IMG/VR virus record: IMGVR_UViG_3300033146_001059 | Coordinates: 2,190-66,189 of that record | Direction: 5' to 3' (one strand) | Origin: a virus | Taxonomy: Duplodnaviria > Caudoviricetes | Length of the DNA stretch: 64,000 nucleotides | Shown here: piece by piece, positions 5,180-64,000 of the stretch | Position numbering within the stretch: position 1 is the first letter of the stretch | Layout of the letters: every line of letters starts with the position of its first letter | Program-made: the position numbers and the translations under genes | The notes under the pieces: model-generated | Seen by the model: the letters and a program-made list of their open reading frames with translations, nothing else | Told to the model about the DNA's origin: nothing | The model's database searches: none

Positions 5180-8100
5180 TTAATCATAATTATTAGTGAA
5201 TAGTGATATAACATTGTATAAATAAGTATAATCCTCACCGCTATATGTTATTTTTATTTTAAAATACTTATCTCTTACTCTTCTTGATGAATTGTTAAAC
5301 CTACTGAACGAATCAACCTTACCAACTTGCACTAAATACTTACCGTCTCTATAATAAGCATTCTCTTTGAATATTCCAATACTCATGTTAGAAGAATCCT
5401 CTCTAATATAGATATTTTCTTCAAATACGGTATTAAACACATTGTCAATGTCAGTATAATCTGGCTCATCAATAATATCACCGTTATCATCGTAATAATT
5501 TATTTTATTTTGACGTAAAACGGCATTCGGAACATCAGTCGTTATGGAGTACTGAATGGTTTTAGGTTTTATTTTATTAGATAGTATCTGTATATTTGTA
5601 AGTATTTTCTCCATATCAGGTCTCTCATGCATAACAAATTCAACGTGAAATGTGTGCTGAGTACCGTGAAACTTACAATATGTAGAGTTAACACCTGTTG
5701 CCCACGCCTCTGATTTTCTATTAGAAACATCAAATAATAAATTATATTCATTATCTGTTAATTGAAACTTAGGGGTATAACTTGTTCTGGATACCCACCT
5801 ATTCATAACCTCGTTATAATACACTGTACCGTATGTAGAAAATAATCCACCAGACTTATCATTCAACAATTTATTATAAGAAAAATATACATTCTTTTTT
5901 ACAGAGTCGAATGACGTATATATTTTTGGTATTCCTACGTCGCTCTTCAATTGAACCAGTTCTTTTTTTGCTTTGAGTAGGTATGATTCTATCTTATAAT
6001 CACTTAAAATTTCAATGCTAGAACCAGAAACCCTCCATATCTTATTACGTATAAAATCTACCCCGTAGATTGTATTGAAACTTCGTATAATTGATTCTGG
6101 ATTTACAGACCCAATAGTAGAGTCTATAACCCTGGCTTTTGAAGCAAGTGCCTGAGCATCATCAACATATATATCTTCTTGAGAATTCACAAGAGTTCTA
6201 CCATCAACTGTTATAAGAGCAACTCCATTTTCAAATATGCAAAAAAGATTATTATTATGGTTTATTAACTTAACTATTTGACCTAACTCCGAATTATAAT
6301 CTTTAAAGTTTATTCCGGAAAAATCCCTATATCCATTGAAAAACTCACTCTGAATATTTGGTGCAGATATCATTATCCTGTTTGGATATTGTAATGTGTA
6401 TGTTGGCGCCTCTACCGAGATACCAACGTATGAGACAGCCCTGTAATCCCCTGTTAAACCTCTGTTATATGCTGACGAGTCTGGTCTATACTCTGAGTAT
6501 AGTTTATCAGCCGCAACTGCAGGGTGAAATCCTCTCTCGCTACCGTATAGCATCATCTCCATAGGGTCTGATTTTTCATACGACCTAACATCAGCGTTGT
6601 GGTTAGTTTGAGATATTATTTCCACTATCATTCCATTTGACGCTAATTTTCTACCTTCATCCATAGTTTCTGATGACGATGATGATTTCCATCCGGTAGT
6701 AATGTTCTCATCTATATCATGAGTCCACTCTTGCGTAGGCCCGGAACCATAAGTATTAAAATCACTAAATGTTGCTGCCGGTGCATCCATTATCCCCATA
6801 GCATATGTAGTCCTCTTAAACACCTTAGTTATAAAACAATCACCATCTGCCACAACTACTGTATCAGTTTCACCAAAAGGTAACCTATCAGTAGTAGAAA
6901 AATATGGTAAACTGTTTGTACTTGAATATATTTCAGCTAAATCTGTAGACGTAAGTGTTGCCTGGGTGGCTTTTATCTCTGCTAGATAAAGAATATCATT
7001 TTTCCAAAAATGTTCAAACTCTAATGTGCTTGTTGCAGTAAAATTCAATGTATATAGATCATTTTCATTTGTTATATCCATCGCAGATGCACTTGGATCC
7101 GTAGCCTCTGCTGTAAATGAGTAATTACCATGTGTAGGTATAGTTATACTTCTCACAATAAACTCTGATGTCTCCCCGGCTATGATAAAATCCACATAAC
7201 TACCAACAGATACATTAGCTTTAAGGTCATCACCAGGACGTTTACCGGCTGCATTTATATAACTTAACTCAAACGTATACGTACTATTAACTAGACTTAT
7301 TTTCATTTTACCAGTTAAAGGCGAGTGCTGTGTTAATTTATAACTTGAATTATAATTAGTTGGGTTAAATAACTCTACCCCTATGTATTTGCTCCAGTTA
7401 TTGACGACCGATGCATACGGATATAAGTTTGCTGTTCCAGTATTATCCCACCACGAAGCTTTATTTATACCTGTCTGTCCATCATCCCATAAACTTACTG
7501 GGTAATCTGTCACAGTAGATGCGTATCCCATAGCGATAGATTTTTTAGGTAGGTATGCGACAGGGTAAAATTTTAATCTTTGTTTACCTTGAAAGTGTAT
7601 TTCTATATGCCTATAATCCCAATCGTGTACAATACCTTGTGCTGGACTAGTATCAAACTGGAAATAATTGCCGTGCCTCACAGGTGAACTGTCTACGGAG
7701 TACTCTCTGTTTACAGTTGGAACATAAATTATATCCCCTTTACGTAAAACCTTTAAAATACCTTCTCTATTTATTTTATTTGCGTCAGTTACATGTATCT
7801 TCATAGCAGCAGCACCCCAGCTCCAGTATTCAATGTATATCATACCAGAATCTGGTGCCCTATCTTTATAACCATCCCTATGTCTATACTTTATCTGACC
7901 GGAGTTACCTACAATAGACGTATATGCAAAGTTGTATGTTCTATCTATCTGTGATGTGAACTGTCCCTCGGCTGCAACTGACACACCATTTGGTACGTAC
8001 ACGAATTTTCCCTTGTACTTTAAATCCCCCTCTAAATTTTGTAAACTAGGCGGACTTTCTACCCCACTAGCTGTTATATCTCTTATATACTGTACCCTAC

Positions 8101-43670: not shown

Positions 43671-43916
43671 ATGGGTACATCTGAATGGATTCCAGAAACA
43701 CACTTAGAAGCTGTTATGAATGGCGAACTTGGTAAAGGAACTACACATCTTAATATAGATGTAAAAACCACAGATACTGTGTTGCAAAACGCTTTAGCTT
43801 TAAGTGCTACTGAACCGTGGTTTAAGACAATTGAGAAAGAAAATAAAAAAGAATATTCATTAGATTTTAAATTTAATGATGGTACAACTCTAAACATTTT
43901 ATTAGCTAAAGTTTAG
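43671..43916 (+). CDS. Hypothetical protein
   Basis: ORF track. Confidence 0.55.
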   Translation: MGTSEWIPETHLEAVMNGELGKGTTHLNIDVKTTDTVLQNALALSATEPWFKTIEKENKKEYSLDFKFNDGTTLNILLAKV

Positions 43917-47849: not shown

Positions 47850-48341
47850 ATGTATTTTAAATTGAGTATGAAAAAACTACTGGTGTTAATTATATTATTA
47901 CACACTTTAGGGAGTTGCACTAAAGTAGAGTATATAAAAGATGAACGCCCTTTAAAAGAATATGAATATGAAGAAAAAGATGTTTCAACTACATATTCTC
48001 CATATGCCTATCTAAAAGTATTAAAGGTTGAAAAAAATTATAAATATATAAAAATAAGTGTAAAATGTTCTAACCTTCTTTCTTCTTATATACATATAAG
48101 AGTATCGCAACTATACACAGAAACAGGTGAAGTTTTTTATATGTATAATAATATAATGTATTATCCTAATGTTAGACCTGGTATGACTTTTAATATTCGT
48201 CAAAGTAATAATGCATTAGATGAATTTATACTCACACTAGATTATGTATACAATTCTTTTGAAGAAATTAATATAAACATATCTCAAAAAAGGGGGATTT
48301 ATTCATATAGAACCAGTTCTGCATTAATAAATAGTATTTAA
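47850..48341 (+). CDS. Putative lipoprotein
   Basis: MKKLLVLIILLHTLGSC lipobox. Confidence 0.6.
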   Translation: MYFKLSMKKLLVLIILLHTLGSCTKVEYIKDERPLKEYEYEEKDVSTTYSPYAYLKVLKVEKNYKYIKISVKCSNLLSSYIHIRVSQLYTETGEVFYMYNNIMYYPNVRPGMTFNIRQSNNALDEFILTLDYVYNSFEEININISQKRGIYSYRTSSALINSI

Positions 48342-48354
48342 AATTTAATATATC

Positions 48355-48645
48355 GTTTGAGTTCAATTTGAACTGTATCAAACACGCGGGTTCGATTCCC
48401 GCTACCTCCACTAATAATTTAAAATCATGGGGGTAACCAGGTATCGACTTGGTACGAAGTAGAAGTAGACGAGATGTATTGAGGTGAATCCGACAATAAA
48501 CGGAAAGAAAACAGCAAAAGTAATCAACTTTGTAGATGACACTAGAGTGTTAGCTGCGGCTTAATCAGCCTATGATTGCGCGTTAGGTGAGAGCCCTAAC
48601 GTTCTTGATTTTAAAGGCTCACCCTATGTGGTGGGTCTTTTTTTA
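48355..48645 (+). ncRNA. ssrA: tmRNA, circularly permuted (two-piece) gene
   Basis: T-arm GCGGGTTCGATTCCCGC + TACCTCCA (48386-48410) precedes the 5' end GGGGGTA..ATCGAC (48429); G3.U70; helix 2 TTGGTAC/GTATCAA; tag ORF 48502-48564 ending LAAA*; outer ends approximate. Confidence 0.85.
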
Positions 48646-48676
48646 TTTTAAATTAAACCATATAAATTATATAGTT

Positions 48677-50993: not shown

Positions 50994-51000
50994 AACATAA

Positions 51001-51071
51001 TCCCTCTTAGAAATCTTACACTGTCGAGGAATTCGACGCCTGATTTTGGTTCTGGAAGAATTTTAGAGGGG
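51001..51071 (+). ncRNA. UAGAA-stem element 1 (no tRNA mimic)
   Basis: TCCCTCT-TAGAAA...AATTTT-AGAGGGG; internal GTCGA/TCGAC hairpin. Confidence 0.6.
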
Positions 51072-51089
51072 TTTATAATATTTTAACTT

Positions 51090-51278
51090 ATGACAATAGG
51101 AGAAATAACGATTATACTAGTACATACAATATTTATAGTAGCTTTTATAGCTTTAAAAACTGAAGACGTACCTAGAGAATACGCAGGTCTTGCTTTTGCA
51201 TCTACATTAATAACAACAGCAGTATTACTTTTTTATGTCTTTGTGTTATTAGATAATTGGAATACTCAAATATTTTAA
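51090..51278 (+). CDS. Small 2-TM protein
   Basis: Hydrophobic ORF. Confidence 0.5.
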   Translation: MTIGEITIILVHTIFIVAFIALKTEDVPREYAGLAFASTLITTAVLLFYVFVLLDNWNTQIF

Positions 51279-51460: not shown

Positions 51461-52441
51461 ATGGATATTAAAGAACTTGAGGTATTTAACTTTACTAATA
51501 ATGAATATAAGGAGTTTGAGAATAATGGTAATACGTACTTATTGAATCAGCACCCTTATTTAGACATTGTACTAACTGACCACTGTAATCAAAATTGTAG
51601 TTTTTGTATAGCTGATTTGATTCATCATAAATTAAATGCAGATTTAATCATCTTTAAAAAAAAAGTTGAATTTGCTATAAATAACATGAATATTGATGAG
51701 GTTTTATTACTTGGAGGAGAACCTACTGTTAGTAATGTTCTTATTCCTATTATAAAATACCTTAAAACCTTACCTCTTAAAAAGATAATCATGACCACAA
51801 ACGGTATAAGATTAGCGAGAGATGAAAAGTATCGAGAAAAAGTATTTTCTAGTGGATTAACACATGTTAATATTTCATTTATGAATATTGAACCTGTTAA
51901 ACAAGGCGAAATTACTGATAATGTATTACCATTAACATTATATGACCTTGCATTAATATATGAAACAGCCAAAAAGAATAAAGTTACTATAAGAATAAAT
52001 AATAATATTTTTATAGATAATAATGATACTGTTAATGCTATGCTTAATTTTTATAATACAGTTAAACCTTATTGTGATCAAGTTAAATTTAGCCCTTTAT
52101 TTGCTGTTGATAATTTTAGCGTTGTTAATGTTAAAACAAATTGGGTTAAAGAACATATATTAACTGATGGGTATGTTGATGCTTTATTTACTGCCTTTGA
52201 ATCAACTATGCGATCTAAAGTGTTAATTTTAGAAAATCCAATGCAATTTGGTTTCGTAAAAAATACCTTAATACCTTTAAAAATACCTATCATTATGAAT
52301 TGGAATTTTGGGAAGTATACAGGTATGATGGATAAAGTTGTTAAAGAAAAGAAGATTAATAATATTAAATTACTTCCTAATAATGAGCTGTCTTTGTCTT
52401 GGAACAGAGAAGACGAGAAGTATTTTATAAAAACTGATTGA
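51461..52441 (+). CDS. Radical SAM protein (326 aa)
   Basis: CNQNCSFC (CxxxCxxC), LLGGEPT, MTTNG, VNIS motifs; no SPASM cysteines visible. Confidence 0.9.
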   Translation: MDIKELEVFNFTNNEYKEFENNGNTYLLNQHPYLDIVLTDHCNQNCSFCIADLIHHKLNADLIIFKKKVEFAINNMNIDEVLLLGGEPTVSNVLIPIIKYLKTLPLKKIIMTTNGIRLARDEKYREKVFSSGLTHVNISFMNIEPVKQGEITDNVLPLTLYDLALIYETAKKNKVTIRINNNIFIDNNDTVNAMLNFYNTVKPYCDQVKFSPLFAVDNFSVVNVKTNWVKEHILTDGYVDALFTAFESTMRSKVLILENPMQFGFVKNTLIPLKIPIIMNWNFGKYTGMMDKVVKEKKINNIKLLPNNELSLSWNREDEKYFIKTD

Positions 52442-61667: not shown

Positions 61668-61942
61668 GTTTCGCACAAACAGTACTAGTGACAAGGTGCG
61701 CTTTTTGTGAATTCTTTGACCCAATAAATGATGAATGTTCAGGGGTTGAAGGTTACATGGCAGTAGACCCTGAGTATATTCATGCTGATTGTCCAGAAGA
61801 TAATAAACCTGAAAATATTAGTGTAATAACTGAACATCCTGTATCTATTAAAGATGCGCACAAGGCTCCTTATATTACAGGTGAAGATATTAAAAATTTA
61901 GACGGTGCATTAGGGCAAGGAGGCCCATTCAGATGGGGTTAA
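61664..61942 (+). CDS. Small Cys-containing (Zn-finger-like) protein
   Basis: CAFC..C..CP. Confidence 0.5.
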   Translation: MSFAQTVLVTRCAFCEFFDPINDECSGVEGYMAVDPEYIHADCPEDNKPENISVITEHPVSIKDAHKAPYITGEDIKNLDGALGQGGPFRWG

Positions 61943-62107
61943 ATTTAAATTCTATATTAATGAGGCAATCTTTTGAGCAGATAAAAATTATTTTTAATGA
62001 CAATCTGGAGAGGCAAGAATACATAACAGATCATGTGGATGCGTTGGCACAGTTTTTACTTGCTGATTCTAAGGAGGTTGTAAAAAAGAAATAATTTTCT
62101 TATTATG

Positions 62108-62138
62108 TTTGTTACTTTGTAAATTTTTAGTATCTTTA
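62108..62138 (+). promoter_or_regulatory. Bacteroidota-type promoter candidate upstream of the RNA cluster
   Basis: TTTG-19nt-TATCTTTA, one mismatch to the -33 TTTG / -7 TAnnTTTG consensus. Confidence 0.45.
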
Positions 62139-62223
62139 CACCAGTAAAAGAGAAGATATTTGACATCACCGAGCTAAACACTCGTAAAAAGTTTAATTAA
62201 TAAAGAAAAATTAGTAAAATATA

Positions 62224-62308
62224 GTACCTCTTAGAAGCGTAAAAACTTCATCTTTAACCAGGTTGTGTGAAAATACGACTAGGATAATTTAAAAGTAATT
62301 AGAGGTAC
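62224..62308 (+). ncRNA. UAGAA-stem element 2 (no tRNA mimic)
   Basis: GTACCTCT-TAGAAG...AATT-AGAGGTAC; internal GGTTGTGT-GAAA-ATACGACT hairpin. Confidence 0.65.
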
Positions 62309-62335
62309 AATATGGCCGTTTAATTGCGGCCACCA

Positions 62336-62410
62336 GGCGCTGTCGTCTAATTGGCCTAGGACACCACCCTTTCACGGTGGCAGATGCGAGTTCGAACCTC
62401 GTCGGCGTCA
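62336..62410 (+). tRNA. tRNA-Glu(TTC)
   Basis: Full cloverleaf; CCACC-CTTTCAC-GGTGG; TTCGAAC; no encoded CCA. Confidence 0.9.
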
Positions 62411-62525
62411 CTTTTCTTATTAAAACTTGTTGGTTCGAATTTTATATCGTATATTGCGGTATGAGGGAAGACATACAAAGAAATAAGTGAGATTACTGGA
62501 GCAGCTAAAAGTAAATTTAGTCTCA

Positions 62526-62612
62526 AATCTAGTCTATTTATGTAGAAATCATCATTGGTTATTTGACCATAATAGGTTAGATAAAGAAAGTATAAAAAAC
62601 ATTAAAAATAAA
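62526..62612 (+). pseudogene. HNH endonuclease C-terminal remnant
   Basis: NLVYLCRNHHWLFDH with no intact start. Confidence 0.55.
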
Positions 62613-62731
62613 AGCATCACTTAGAAACATTTACATTCGTAAATTTAGCTCAGTTGGTAGAGCATTTGAATCATAATCAAAAGGCCAAGGGTTCAACTCC
62701 CTTATCTTACAACAGAAAATTAGTGATGCTT
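62612..62731 (+). ncRNA. UAGAA-stem element 3 enclosing a degenerate tRNA(CAT) at 62639-62711
   Basis: AAGCATCACT-TAGAAA...AATT-AGTGATGCTT; inner D, anticodon and T arms intact, acceptor stem has 2 mismatches. Confidence 0.7.
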
Positions 62732-62739
62732 AAACTTAT

Positions 62740-62813
62740 TGTGAGATAGAGCAGATGGCCAGCTCGCGAGGCTCATAACCTCGAGGTCGGGGGTTCGAAT
62801 CCCCCTCTCGCTA
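62740..62813 (+). tRNA. tRNA-Met(CAT), initiator type
   Basis: 1:72 mismatch, A11:U24, CGAGG-CTCATAA-CCTCG. Confidence 0.85.
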
Positions 62814-62889
62814 CTATCAGGTCCCTTTGAAGCTAGGGTTTATGGAACAGGCTAAATAAAAGCCTATAATACCTGTTCGCCTGTAACCT

Positions 62890-62962
62890 TGTGATATAGC
62901 TCAGTTGGTAGAGCATCTCCTTCATGCGGAAAAAGTCATCGGTTCGAGTCCGATTATCGCTA
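62890..62962 (+). tRNA. tRNA-Met(CAT), elongator-like (Ile2 not excluded)
   Basis: Cloverleaf, loop TTCATGC; one anticodon-stem mismatch and a U1:U72 mismatch. Confidence 0.7.
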
Positions 62963-62970
62963 CTAAAACA

Positions 62971-63175
62971 AGACCAGATGGCTGGAGAAATACTATTACG
63001 AAAGGTATTTGAGATAAAGATTGATTTTTGCGGATTGATCGCAGGCTCATTACGCTTACTAATTACTACAGTATGGTAAAGCACATGGAGCCGCAACTCC
63101 ACGGTCATAGATAAACGAGAATTAACGTTGTTCAAATTTATTTATGTTGGGTGGTTCGAATCCCCCTCAGGTCAC
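62971..63175 (+). ncRNA. Expanded tRNA-like RNA (Cys-like fragments)
   Basis: GACCAGA/TCAGGTC ends, TGGAG-CCGCAA-CTCCA arm, TTCGAATCC T-arm, separated by long inserts. Confidence 0.4.
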
Positions 63176-63186
63176 AATTATTAAAT

Positions 63187-63296
63187 GGGAACTTTTATAA
63201 GTTAGAGATATTATGTGTCTCTTAGAAAAATTTAAAAACTATGGTTAAGACTATTCCGTGAGGAAAGGTTGTCAGGTTCAAATCCTGAAGTTCCCG
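63187..63296 (+). ncRNA. UAGAA-stem element 4: tRNA-like RNA with the module inserted as a hairpin
   Basis: GGGAACT/AGTTCCC acceptor; TT-AGAGATAT-tat-GTGTCTCT-TAGAAAA insert; TCAGG-TTCAAAT-CCTGA T-arm. Confidence 0.65.
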
Positions 63297-63300
63297 CAAA

Positions 63301-63419
63301 AAATCCCCCTTAGAAAACTTTCAATCAGATTTTGTAAATCCGAGATTGTAGGTTCGAATCCTATGTTATCGTTAGATAATTAGCTAAACTGGATATAGCG
63401 CGTAATTTTAGGGGGATTT
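63301..63419 (+). ncRNA. UAGAA-stem element 5 enclosing a circularly permuted tRNA-Thr(TGT) mimic
   Basis: AAATCCCCCT-TAGAAAA...AATTTT-AGGGGGATTT; order anticodon arm, T-arm, closed acceptor, D-arm. Confidence 0.75.
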
Positions 63420-63428
63420 AAATTATTG

Positions 63429-63634
63429 AATAGTAAATGGCGGAATAGGTAGACGCTAACAGAGGTATAGGATCACTCCAATTATAAGGGCCCCTCTATA
63501 ATTATAATAAATTATGATCTATGTAAAGTGACTATACTAGTGACAAAAGCCCTTAGTGGATGAGCCTACGGGCAATAATGACAACATGACGAGTAATTCA
63601 AGCTCGAATCTAGTCAAATCTTTACTTTACTATT
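63429..63634 (+). ncRNA. Expanded tRNA-Leu-like RNA
   Basis: AATAGTAAA/TTTACTATT ends, Leu-type D-arm GCGGAATAGGTAGACGC, T-stem GTAAAG/CTTTAC with a large structured insert. Confidence 0.5.
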
Positions 63635-63644
63635 TAAATTATTT

Positions 63645-63717
63645 GGGGCTGAAGCTCTACTGGCTGAGCACTTCGCTTGCACCGAAGAGGTTGCGGGATC
63701 GTACCCCGTCAGCTCCA
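63645..63717 (+). tRNA. tRNA-Ala(TGC)
   Basis: GGGGCTG/CAGCTCC with G3.U70; CTTCG-CTTGCAC-CGAAG; atypical T-loop ATCGTAC. Confidence 0.85.
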
Positions 63718-63721
63718 CAAA

Positions 63722-63846
63722 TACCTCTCTTAGAAAAATTCAAAAACATGTAAAGACAGATAAAAGCCCTTGTGGCACATAAGTCCGTTAGGTTCGAATC
63801 CTTCACCCTTGGTGTAAATTGGTTTTTGAGGACAAATAGAGAGGTA
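63722..63846 (+). ncRNA. UAGAA-stem element 6 enclosing a permuted tRNA mimic
   Basis: TACCTCTCT-TAGAAAA...AAT-AGAGAGGTA; TCAAAAAC/GTTTTTGA; T-arm AGG-TTCGAAT-CCT then closed acceptor CACC-ctt-GGTG. Confidence 0.7.
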
Positions 63847-63851
63847 AATTT

Positions 63852-63973
63852 GGCGAGATTAAAATGTTGGAACACTAGTGAGGTTTTCATTTCGTCTCAC
63901 TTAGAAAACTTTAAATTTATACAAAACAAAATGTGAATTTGAATAACGGAGGTTCGAATCCTTCCTCTCGCCA
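63852..63973 (+). ncRNA. UAGAA-stem element 7: tRNA-like RNA with the module inserted as a hairpin
   Basis: GGCGAGA/TCTCGCC-A acceptor; CT-AGTGAGG...TCTCACT-TAGAAAA insert; GGAGG-TTCGAAT-CCTTC T-arm. Confidence 0.7.
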
Positions 63974-64000
63974 CTAAAGCCTCCCTCGATTTCATGACTG

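Follow-up and report, generated by a model that had tools for sequence, protein, structure and literature searches.

How should an RNA be read that has every part of a tRNA-Thr but has them in the wrong order, with the end that should receive the amino acid closed by a loop? The question is raised by a locus in the stretch of DNA analyzed here (the window, 64,000 nucleotides), which comprises bases 2190 to 66189 of the 66,189-bp virus record IMGVR_UViG_3300033146_001059 (IMG/VR; Caudoviricetes), judged 37% complete. On the plus strand at positions 63303 to 63417 of the window, within a tRNA array and 583 bases from the end of the record, lies an element that we call E4. It encodes a full tRNA-Thr(UGU) cloverleaf in rotated order: anticodon arm, variable loop, T arm, capped 6-bp acceptor stem, UA, and D arm. 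On balance, we hold that E4 is probably a non-chargeable tRNA mimic built to the design of the Y RNA-like A (YrlA) RNAs and carried on a phage-specific stem-plus-motif element, which we call the handle.

The fold elements of E4 and their permuted order can be read directly from the DNA, and the pieces of a complete permuted tRNA-Thr(UGU), as claimed in a preliminary description of the locus, are all where that description placed them, on the plus strand (Table 1). The bases responsible for tertiary contacts are canonical throughout (U8, A14, A15-U48, G18, G19, G26/A44, G53-C61, U54-A58, U55, C56, U33, and A37). The acceptor strands pair at six of six positions (five Watson-Crick pairs and one G.U), and a seventh position would, as read from the sequence, be an A1.G72 mismatch. 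In the anticodon stem, four of the five pairs form, the remaining one being an A28.C42 mismatch. Because E4 has a 5-nt variable loop, U48, and the G26/A44 pair, we argue that this arm is probably a true anticodon arm, kept from a tRNA-Thr. Folding by RNAfold gives a 10-bp run (AAAUCCCCCU/AGGGGGAUUU) in E4, then a bulged U, and then a pairing of the AGAA of the conserved motif with the UUUU at 63406-63409 (probability, 0.4 to 0.54). No open reading frame (ORF) of at least 50 amino acids (aa) overlaps the element. Compared with a canonical tRNA, E4 has its acceptor closed by GTTA and its D and anticodon arms in reverse order, and it thus lacks free acceptor ends and contiguous arms.

When the two halves of E4 are rejoined in silico, ARAGORN calls a tRNA-Thr(tgt) in all 36 junction variants, and it makes no call in 1,000 dinucleotide shuffles of the re-permuted sequence. 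The check proposed with the preliminary description, re-permutation followed by a tRNA caller, therefore came out in its favor. In native order, E4 is called neither by ARAGORN nor by the Rfam tRNA model at their thresholds. In control runs, ARAGORN accepted five of five self-reassembled tRNAs, and also 7 of 20 chimeras that combined halves of two different array tRNAs; what the call proves is thus that both tRNA halves are good, not that they match. We also submitted every rotated 70- to 100-nt segment of positions 61900-64000, on both strands, to ARAGORN. Calls that span the junction arose at the E4 locus, at the dimer of the first two CAT tRNAs (CAT1/CAT2, 62624-62860), and once at 62364-62463; the minus strand of this region yielded none.

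The acceptor of E4 is a 6-bp stem sealed by a 4-nt loop, and we therefore expect E4 to take neither CCA nor an amino acid; the earlier inference that it cannot be aminoacylated while the GTTA loop is closed was, in our judgment, right. We propose that transcription of the phage tRNA array includes E4 and that the resulting RNA forms a body with the shape of tRNA-Thr(UGU). If the GUUA loop stays closed, the only free ends would be those of the closing stem, which would leave the body between the D and anticodon arms. Such an RNA could offer a tRNA elbow and a complete anticodon loop to a tRNA-binding protein, the candidate targets being a modification enzyme, a synthetase, or a tRNA-cutting defense nuclease.

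The sealed end might instead be opened. RNase P could cut the GUUA loop before A63374, 3′ trimming and CCA addition could follow, and the two pieces could be joined by the handle, the acceptor stem, and the D/T contacts into a chargeable two-piece tRNA-Thr. YrlA of M. smegmatis has a 7-bp acceptor stem that is cut by RNase P, and it receives CCA in vivo (PMC4201824). The same phage has a permuted (two-piece) tmRNA gene, detected by ARAGORN and by Rfam (RF04321, 66.3 bits), in which the T arm and the acceptor 3′ strand with its discriminator are followed by an 18-nt spacer, the acceptor 5′ strand, and a tag reading frame that ends in LAAA. Moreover, E4 keeps a canonical anticodon loop (U33, UGU, A37) and has a U at position −1 before A63374. 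However, RNase P cleavage is tied to the 7-bp stem, and for 6-bp acceptor stems, including that of S. Typhimurium YrlA, the accounts in PMC4201824 and 10.1101/312249 give no cleavage. E4 has six pairs, A.G at the seventh position, and only 2 to 4 loop bases, and a decoding tRNA would have to accommodate, between positions 26 and 27, a protruding 27-nt linker and a helix of 7 bp or more. The tmRNA shares with E4 a tRNA-like domain in permuted order, but it has a chargeable end, is made of two pieces, and has its acceptor strands 18 nt apart, whereas those of E4 are joined by a 4-nt loop and a tag reading frame is lacking. Processing of this kind strikes us as quite improbable. We give slightly less credence still to a working two-piece tRNA-Thr in which the CUUAGAA handle, perhaps with a protein, clamps the split and rearranged pieces in place of the link between positions 26 and 27; if this were true, the phage would encode a two-piece tmRNA and a two-piece tRNA, and the handle would make split tRNA genes functional in a bacterial virus. 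Of the two roles first suggested for E4, a decoy or mimic is in our judgment the better idea, and the 6-bp stem with its A.G mismatch lends a processed two-piece tRNA little support.

The frame around E4 is itself a recurrent element. E4 had initially been described as clamped by a UAGAA stem. A closing stem does exist, but this account understated it: the stem has 7 bp (ATCCCCC/GGGGGAT), and it is part of a handle whose seven occurrences in the window had been missed. In the handle, the 5′ strand of a 7-bp stem ends in C and is followed by UUAGAA, and UA precedes the 3′ strand, of which the first base is G. All seven copies, E4 included, lie on the plus strand in non-coding DNA (E0 to E6 [Table 1]), and six of them fall within 1.8 kb. 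Their cargoes differ. The handle surrounds a complete canonical tRNA in E2 and cargo unlike a tRNA in E0 and E1. In E3 and E6 it forms a capped hairpin within a tRNA frame that has an open acceptor and no anticodon arm; read round the circle, E3 and E6 have the same part order as E4, of which they are circular permutations. E5 carries as its cargo a degenerate version of the E4 order, made up of a T loop, the 4-bp capped stem CACC-CTT-GGTG, TA, and TTGG. The match of E3 to the Rfam tRNA model is confined to the T arm, ARAGORN calls E6 only at an 85% threshold with a forced intron, and running ARAGORN over the array with introns and lowered thresholds gave forced calls only. No Rfam family or known ribozyme came near threshold for E3, E5, or E6. 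Just 5′ of the E3 T arm, at 63249-63270 (plus strand), there is a hairpin with a GNRA-type tetraloop (GACU-A-UUCC-GUGA-GGAA-A-GGUU).

The minimum free energy (MFE) structures predicted by RNAfold contain the outer stem in all seven copies (z scores, −2.4 to −4.0) and extend it: a U-A pair comes first, a U then bulges out, and A-U and G.U pairs follow. Opposite the G of UUAG, five copies have U, E6 has C, and E5 has A. The stems are unrelated in sequence, and together they form 44 Watson-Crick and five G.U pairs without a mismatch, that is, they covary within one genome. Because the G.U pairs would be A.C on the other strand, selection appears to act on the plus-strand transcript and not on duplex DNA. 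Seven of the 11 plus-strand CTTAGAA sites have a partner that is complementary at 7 of 7 positions and preceded by TA, and the chance of such a partner ranges from 0.004 to 0.085 per site in local shuffles (the shuffle test scored six partnered sites, E3 having been found in a separate scan). Neither the other four plus-strand CTTAGAA sites, one of which (43703) lies inside an ORF at 43671-43916, nor the four minus-strand sites have a partner. The pattern CNCTTAGAA occurs eight times forward and three times in reverse in the record (reversed control pattern, 0 and 1). The looser motif CTTAG gives nine partnered sites on both strands, versus a mean of 4.0 and a maximum of 9 in whole-window shuffles; this count is within the shuffle range, and the handle signal thus rests on the longer motif and on its clustering in non-coding DNA.

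Several known elements were compared with the handle and rejected. Reading TTAGAA as part of a sigma-70 promoter yielded no matching sites. A K-turn requires a second G.A pair; C-UUA-GA has no such pair, the opposite strand is UA and not GA, and RNAfold gives a helix with a bulged U instead. Retrons, integron attC sites, IS200/IS605 elements, and DNA of the miniature inverted-repeat transposable element (MITE) type were set aside in view of inverted repeats that lie outside the short direct repeat, G.U pairs restricted to one strand, and RNA-like cargo.

What the handle does is suggested by its make-up and its contexts. About nine bases on one strand and three or four on the other are invariant beside a stem of free sequence, a pattern that speaks for a specific factor that recognizes the handle. 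That the handle also surrounds a normal tRNA in E2 and lies in an mRNA leader in E0 favors a role in cis. We picture a modular handle, borne by at least seven small RNAs, in which a free 7-bp stem leads into C-G and U-A pairs, a U bulges out before A-U and G.U pairs, and the tail is rich in A; it may dock a common protein or may be a common processing or stability clamp. If it were punctuation only, either a clamp of this type acting in cis or an antitermination-type signal, E4 would be a free mimic or nothing at all. The handle wraps a normal tRNA in E2, where docking is not needed; E0 belongs to a 5′ leader and is followed, about 20 nt on, by the ATG of a 62-aa ORF at 51090-51278; and the conserved A/U-rich tail looks as if it could be a site for a single-strand nuclease. 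In addition, the C-N-C-U-U-A core may partly resemble the boxA antitermination motif. Yet the invariant bases exceed the needs of a clamp, the copies are concentrated in the 1.8-kb cluster, and the motif was not found in related phages with large tRNA arrays. We consider punctuation alone to be rather improbable. As to its surroundings, E0 is remote from the tRNA array, a radical-SAM gene (51461-52441) follows it at a distance of about 390 bases, and the E0 cargo contains the hairpin GTCGA-GGAAT-TCGAC.

Permuted tRNA genes are familiar from red and green algae such as Cyanidioschyzon, in which the acceptor spacer is removed and splicing enzymes seal the break, located in the anticodon, D, or T loop, so that a normal tRNA results. 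The paired ends of these algal transcripts form a bulge-helix-bulge with a 4-bp helix and 3-nt bulges. E4 likewise has its 3′ half encoded before its 5′ half and transcript ends that pair. If it were a precursor of this type, the handle would be a splice signal: both strands would be cut, the circle ligated, and the product opened at the acceptor to yield a normal tRNA-Thr. The paired ends of E4 do form a helix flanked by conserved unpaired bases, which bears a loose likeness to a bulge-helix-bulge, and in E3 and E6 the handle helix is a hairpin inside a tRNA frame, as an intron would be. The details differ, however. The helix of E4 has 7 bp and not 4, and the bulge has 1 nt and not 3. In place of a removable spacer, the acceptor has only the 4-nt loop GTTA, too short for its 5′ and 3′ sides to be processed separately. 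E4 is interrupted between its D and anticodon arms, and its virus infects a bacterium. The geometry contradicts the algal-type reading, since G26 and C27 would still be separated by about 27 extra bases after a cut at the helix. No gene resembling RtcB, an RNA ligase, or a splicing endonuclease was found in the fragment, and the handles of E0 and E1 surround cargo that is not tRNA-like. We regard an algal-type pre-tRNA as very improbable.

The closest known design is that of YrlA RNAs, which have been recorded in 22 bacteriophages (PMC4201824). In a search with a 151-nt sequence, the Rfam YrlA model (RF02553) matches E4 over model positions 23 to 88 of 114 (E value, 9.1e−6) with 32.4 bits, which is below the Rfam gathering threshold of 69 bits. 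The alignment covers the T arm, the capped acceptor, the UA, and the D arm; the T arm of E4 is placed on the T arm of both the YrlA and the tRNA models, and its capped acceptor is placed on the capped acceptor stem of YrlA. E4 outscores every YrlA-model match in 15 related phage records, the next of which reaches 27.7 bits; these are mostly junctions of adjacent tRNAs, the artifact against which PMC4201824 warns in YrlA searches. The order of parts is also shared (closing stem, variable region, T arm, loop-capped acceptor, UA, D arm, closing stem), and the capped acceptor of E4 has 6 bp, as in S. Typhimurium YrlA. So are, from the features listed in 10.1101/312249, the UA linker, the pyrimidine that ends the variable loop, the Levitt pair, and the D- and T-loop bases.

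E4 nevertheless departs from YrlA in several respects. YrlA "lacks the anticodon loop" (10.1101/312249), whereas E4 has a complete anticodon arm at the canonical distance from the T arm; this arm occupies the place of the variable region of YrlA, and the closing stem stands where a tRNA has its anticodon stem. In place of the motif GNCGAAN0-1G, found near the 5′ end of YrlA and presumed to contact Ro60 (PMC4201824), the 5′ strand of E4 (ATCCCCC TTAGAAAAC TTTCAAT) has CUUAGAAA, and E4 has no G-N-C-G-A-A outside the T loop. E4 is, furthermore, located inside a tRNA array and shares the motif of its closing stem with six other RNAs. A YrlA gene would be expected within about 4 kb of a Ro60/Rsr gene on the same strand; no TROVE domain was detected at an E value of ≤1 in the 66,189-bp record, which ends 583 bases past E4 and could be followed closely by such a gene, and none was found in five related records (one of them complete, 175 kb). 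Because it has no Ro60 motif, has no Ro60 gene that we could find, and keeps an anticodon arm, E4, judged by its sequence, would be of YrlA design without being a member of YrlA. A phage-encoded Ro60 seems unlikely as its partner, and a host Ro60 is possible.

A design of this kind could also be an accident of descent. The middle of a tRNA dimer has precisely the E4 order, and YrlA has been proposed to descend from dimeric tRNAs (10.1101/312249). If a tRNA-Thr gene with a handle was duplicated in tandem, or if two handles recombined, the 3′ part of one gene could have become fused to the 5′ part of the next, leaving a functionless relic. Junctions of tRNA dimers also match the YrlA model in related arrays and appear in our rotation scan, the neighboring E5 is degenerate, and the anticodon stem of E4 has a mismatch. 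When E4 was compared with 79 tRNAs of related phages, it was no nearer to their tRNA-Thr(tgt) genes (identity, 0.64 to 0.68) than to other tRNAs (up to 0.69). A relic would hardly be expected, though, to keep all of its stems intact except at one position and all of its tertiary bases, to have acceptor halves that pair at 6 of 6 positions across only a 4-nt loop, and to sit within a flawless copy of the handle, the seven stems of which covary without a mismatch. We rank a relic first among the rival explanations, followed by a punctuating handle, a two-piece tRNA, and an algal-type pre-tRNA, and we consider even the relic unlikely.

Several results weigh against the preferred interpretation of E4 as a mimic on a handle. 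To the subthreshold YrlA score and the identity values above are added those of folding: in the ensemble of a 121-nt RNA, the T stem has a probability of 0.09 to 0.17 and the acceptor and D stems have one of 0.35 to 0.48, and the fold that combines cloverleaf and handle lies 4.9 kcal/mol above the MFE. The 75-nt core of E4 alone folds into T, acceptor, and D arms. E5, which adjoins E4 and looks like a decayed copy, indicates that modules of this type can rot. The 66-kb fragment, 37% of the genome, has no TROVE protein, RtcB, CCA enzyme, or member of two RNA ligase families, and 19 of 20 nearby ORFs have no significant match to a Pfam family, so that no candidate partner protein was found. Lastly, neither E4 nor the handle was found in another genome by the following searches.

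A blastn search of GenBank phages with positions 62200-64000 and the E4 core returned ordinary tRNA similarity only. In IMG/VR, the pattern CTTAGAAAA..GGTTCGAATCC matched 17 loci, none with the handle architecture (one of them, L004, was inspected as a possible relative and dropped), and a handle placed before a common D arm matched 37 loci, none with a complementary 3′ strand. A longer handle-plus-T-loop pattern had no matches in metagenome contigs or GTDB genomes. The hairpin-type handle pattern matched at least 116 loci, seven of them with 6 of 7 pairs, and none looked handle-like by eye among the matches listed. With the T arm of tRNA-Ala as an anchor, metagenomes gave at least 118 loci, and similarity was limited to single tRNAs among the matches listed. 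Of two neighboring ORFs used as anchors, that of 134 aa gave no loci and that of 306 aa gave three distant loci without tRNAs.

With the terminase as an anchor, IMG/VR yielded a single close locus, 6 kb long, and GTDB genomes yielded none. Alignment of terminases extended to 79 loci, of which 27 (chosen by eye, mostly longer records) were searched; in the arrays of the 15 that bear tRNAs, we found neither a handle nor a permuted tRNA. Except for three short contigs, these relatives are at most about 50% identical, and closer terminases (P0002, P0008, P0010, and P0013; 75 to 86% identical) are known as proteins on contigs of 40 to 133 kb. P0010, P0013, and P0061 are labeled as from a "Chlamydiia bacterium" metagenome-assembled genome, which probably reflects binned phage contigs or else hints at the host. 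Seven terminases (P0055, P0057, P0075, P0079, P0087, P0091, and P0092) have about 1,100 aa and LAGLIDADG-type domains (PF14528; PF05204 in one), which suggests inteins in the terminase of this phage clade. The terminase of the window has 740 aa and no such domain.

Some of the related arrays have unusual members of their own. In one record (G008, locus L296), three RNAs on the minus strand (5213-5329, 5352-5464, and 5699-5805) match the Rfam tRNA model with 40 to 42 bits; they keep the acceptor, D, and T arms and have 28 to 55 nt in place of the anticodon loop. E3 and E6 resemble them in keeping acceptor and T arms around a replaced anticodon region. The G008 RNAs, however, have open acceptor ends and no CUUAGAA handle, whereas E4 is a permuted, capped form. 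Similarly long tRNA matches occur at 69853-69964 in G017 and at 75761-75866 in G027. In the complete 175-kb relative (G025), ARAGORN calls an amber-reading tRNA with anticodon CTA, labeled Pyl (L299, position 2248, plus strand), and three odd tRNAs with 2- or 4-base anticodons.

The window contains genes for a portal, a large terminase, a major head protein, and an endolysin. The array itself, at positions 62200-64000 near the right end of the window, is non-coding and includes five canonical tRNA genes, all five called by ARAGORN on the same strand as E4 (Table 1). The CAT tRNAs at 62740-62814 and 62890-62963 begin with TGTGA, and their 1-72 pair, as aligned by Rfam, is non-standard. Two plus-strand segments of about 200 nt each, with about 130 nt of foreign core, may be further tRNA-framed RNAs, and neither is called by ARAGORN or Rfam: 62970-63172 has an acceptor-like closing stem (GACCAGA/TCAGGTC) with one mismatch, and 63430-63632 has the closing stem TAGTAAA/TTTACTA and a Leu-type D arm, GGCGGAATAGGTAGACGC.

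Table 1. Parts of E4, copies of the handle, and RNA genes in the window (sequences as DNA unless U is written; a hyphen separates handle stem and motif)
Feature	Position	Strand	Description
E4, handle stem, 5′ strand	63303-63309	+	ATCCCCC; 7/7 pairs with 63411-63417; pairing probability 0.98-1.0
E4, motif and linker	63310-63325	+	Motif UUAGAAAA, linker CUUUCAAU; C-TTAGAA invariant across all seven copies
E4, anticodon arm	63326-63342	+	Stem CAGAT/ATCCG, loop TTTGTAA (UUUGUAA); U33, anticodon UGU, A37
E4, variable loop	63343-63347	+	AGATT (A44, U48); A15-U48 Levitt pair, G26/A44 possible
E4, T arm	63348-63364	+	GTAGG-TTCGAAT-CCTAT; five pairs; G53-C61, U54-A58, U55, C56 present
E4, acceptor 3′ strand	63365-63370	+	GTTATC
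E4, acceptor loop	63371-63374	+	GTTA
E4, acceptor 5′ strand	63375-63380	+	GATAAT
E4, TA	63381-63382	+	U8 A9
E4, D arm	63383-63399	+	GCTA-AACTGGATA-TAGC (RNA: GCUA-AACUGGAUA-UAGC); four Watson-Crick pairs; A14, A15, G18, G19, A21
E4, G26 and linker	63400-63410	+	CGUAAUUUUA, ending in conserved UA; TA before 3′ strand in 7/7 copies
E4, handle stem, 3′ strand	63411-63417	+	GGGGGAU
E0	51000-51072	+	ATCCCTC-TTAGAAA ... TTTTA-GAGGGGT; non-tRNA cargo; MFE retains outer stem, z −2.5
E1	62224-62308	+	GTACCTC-TTAGAAG ... ATTA-GAGGTAC; non-tRNA cargo; z −3.9
E2	62614-62729	+	GCATCAC-TTAGAAA ... ATTA-GTGATGC around complete canonical tRNA(CAT) 62639-62711; z −3.97
E3	63187-63296	+	tRNA frame, open acceptor GGGAACT/AGTTCCC, T arm 63272-63288, no anticodon arm; handle hairpin 63205-63221, then TTAGAAAA
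E5	63723-63845	+	ACCTCTC-TTAGAAAA ... AATA-GAGAGGT; no Rfam match
E6	63852-63973	+	tRNA frame, open acceptor GGCGAGA/TCTCGCC, T arm 63948-63964, no anticodon arm; handle hairpin 63878-63900, then TTAGAAAA
tRNA-Glu(TTC)	62336-62411	+	
tRNA(CAT)	62639-62711	+	
tRNA(CAT)	62740-62814	+	
tRNA(CAT)	62890-62963	+	
tRNA-Ala(TGC)	63645-63718	+	
Permuted (two-piece) tmRNA	48320-48655	+	

What is new in E4, compared with the known YrlA-type phage mimics, is that it keeps its anticodon arm, that it is interrupted between this arm and the D arm, and, most of all, that it shares its handle with other RNAs. We found no description of such an element or of the handle in the literature searched, nor, among the papers listed, one that by its title or the start of its abstract concerned a permuted bacteriophage tRNA; the lists of phage YrlA in PMC4201824 may hold closer examples. 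YrlA-type tRNA mimics are known as partners of Ro60; here, a mimic of this type would stand in a phage tRNA array in which no Ro60 was found, with its anticodon arm kept. E4 fits the published idea that mimics originate from tRNA dimers, and it would be an intermediate form. If our reading holds, E4 points to a use of tRNA look-alikes by phages that is independent of Ro60, possibly to tie up those host proteins that recognize tRNA-Thr or the elbow of tRNAs, tRNA-cutting defense nucleases among them. The handle may point to an RNA-protein system or a processing signal of phages that has yet to be described, and it could serve as bait for the partner.

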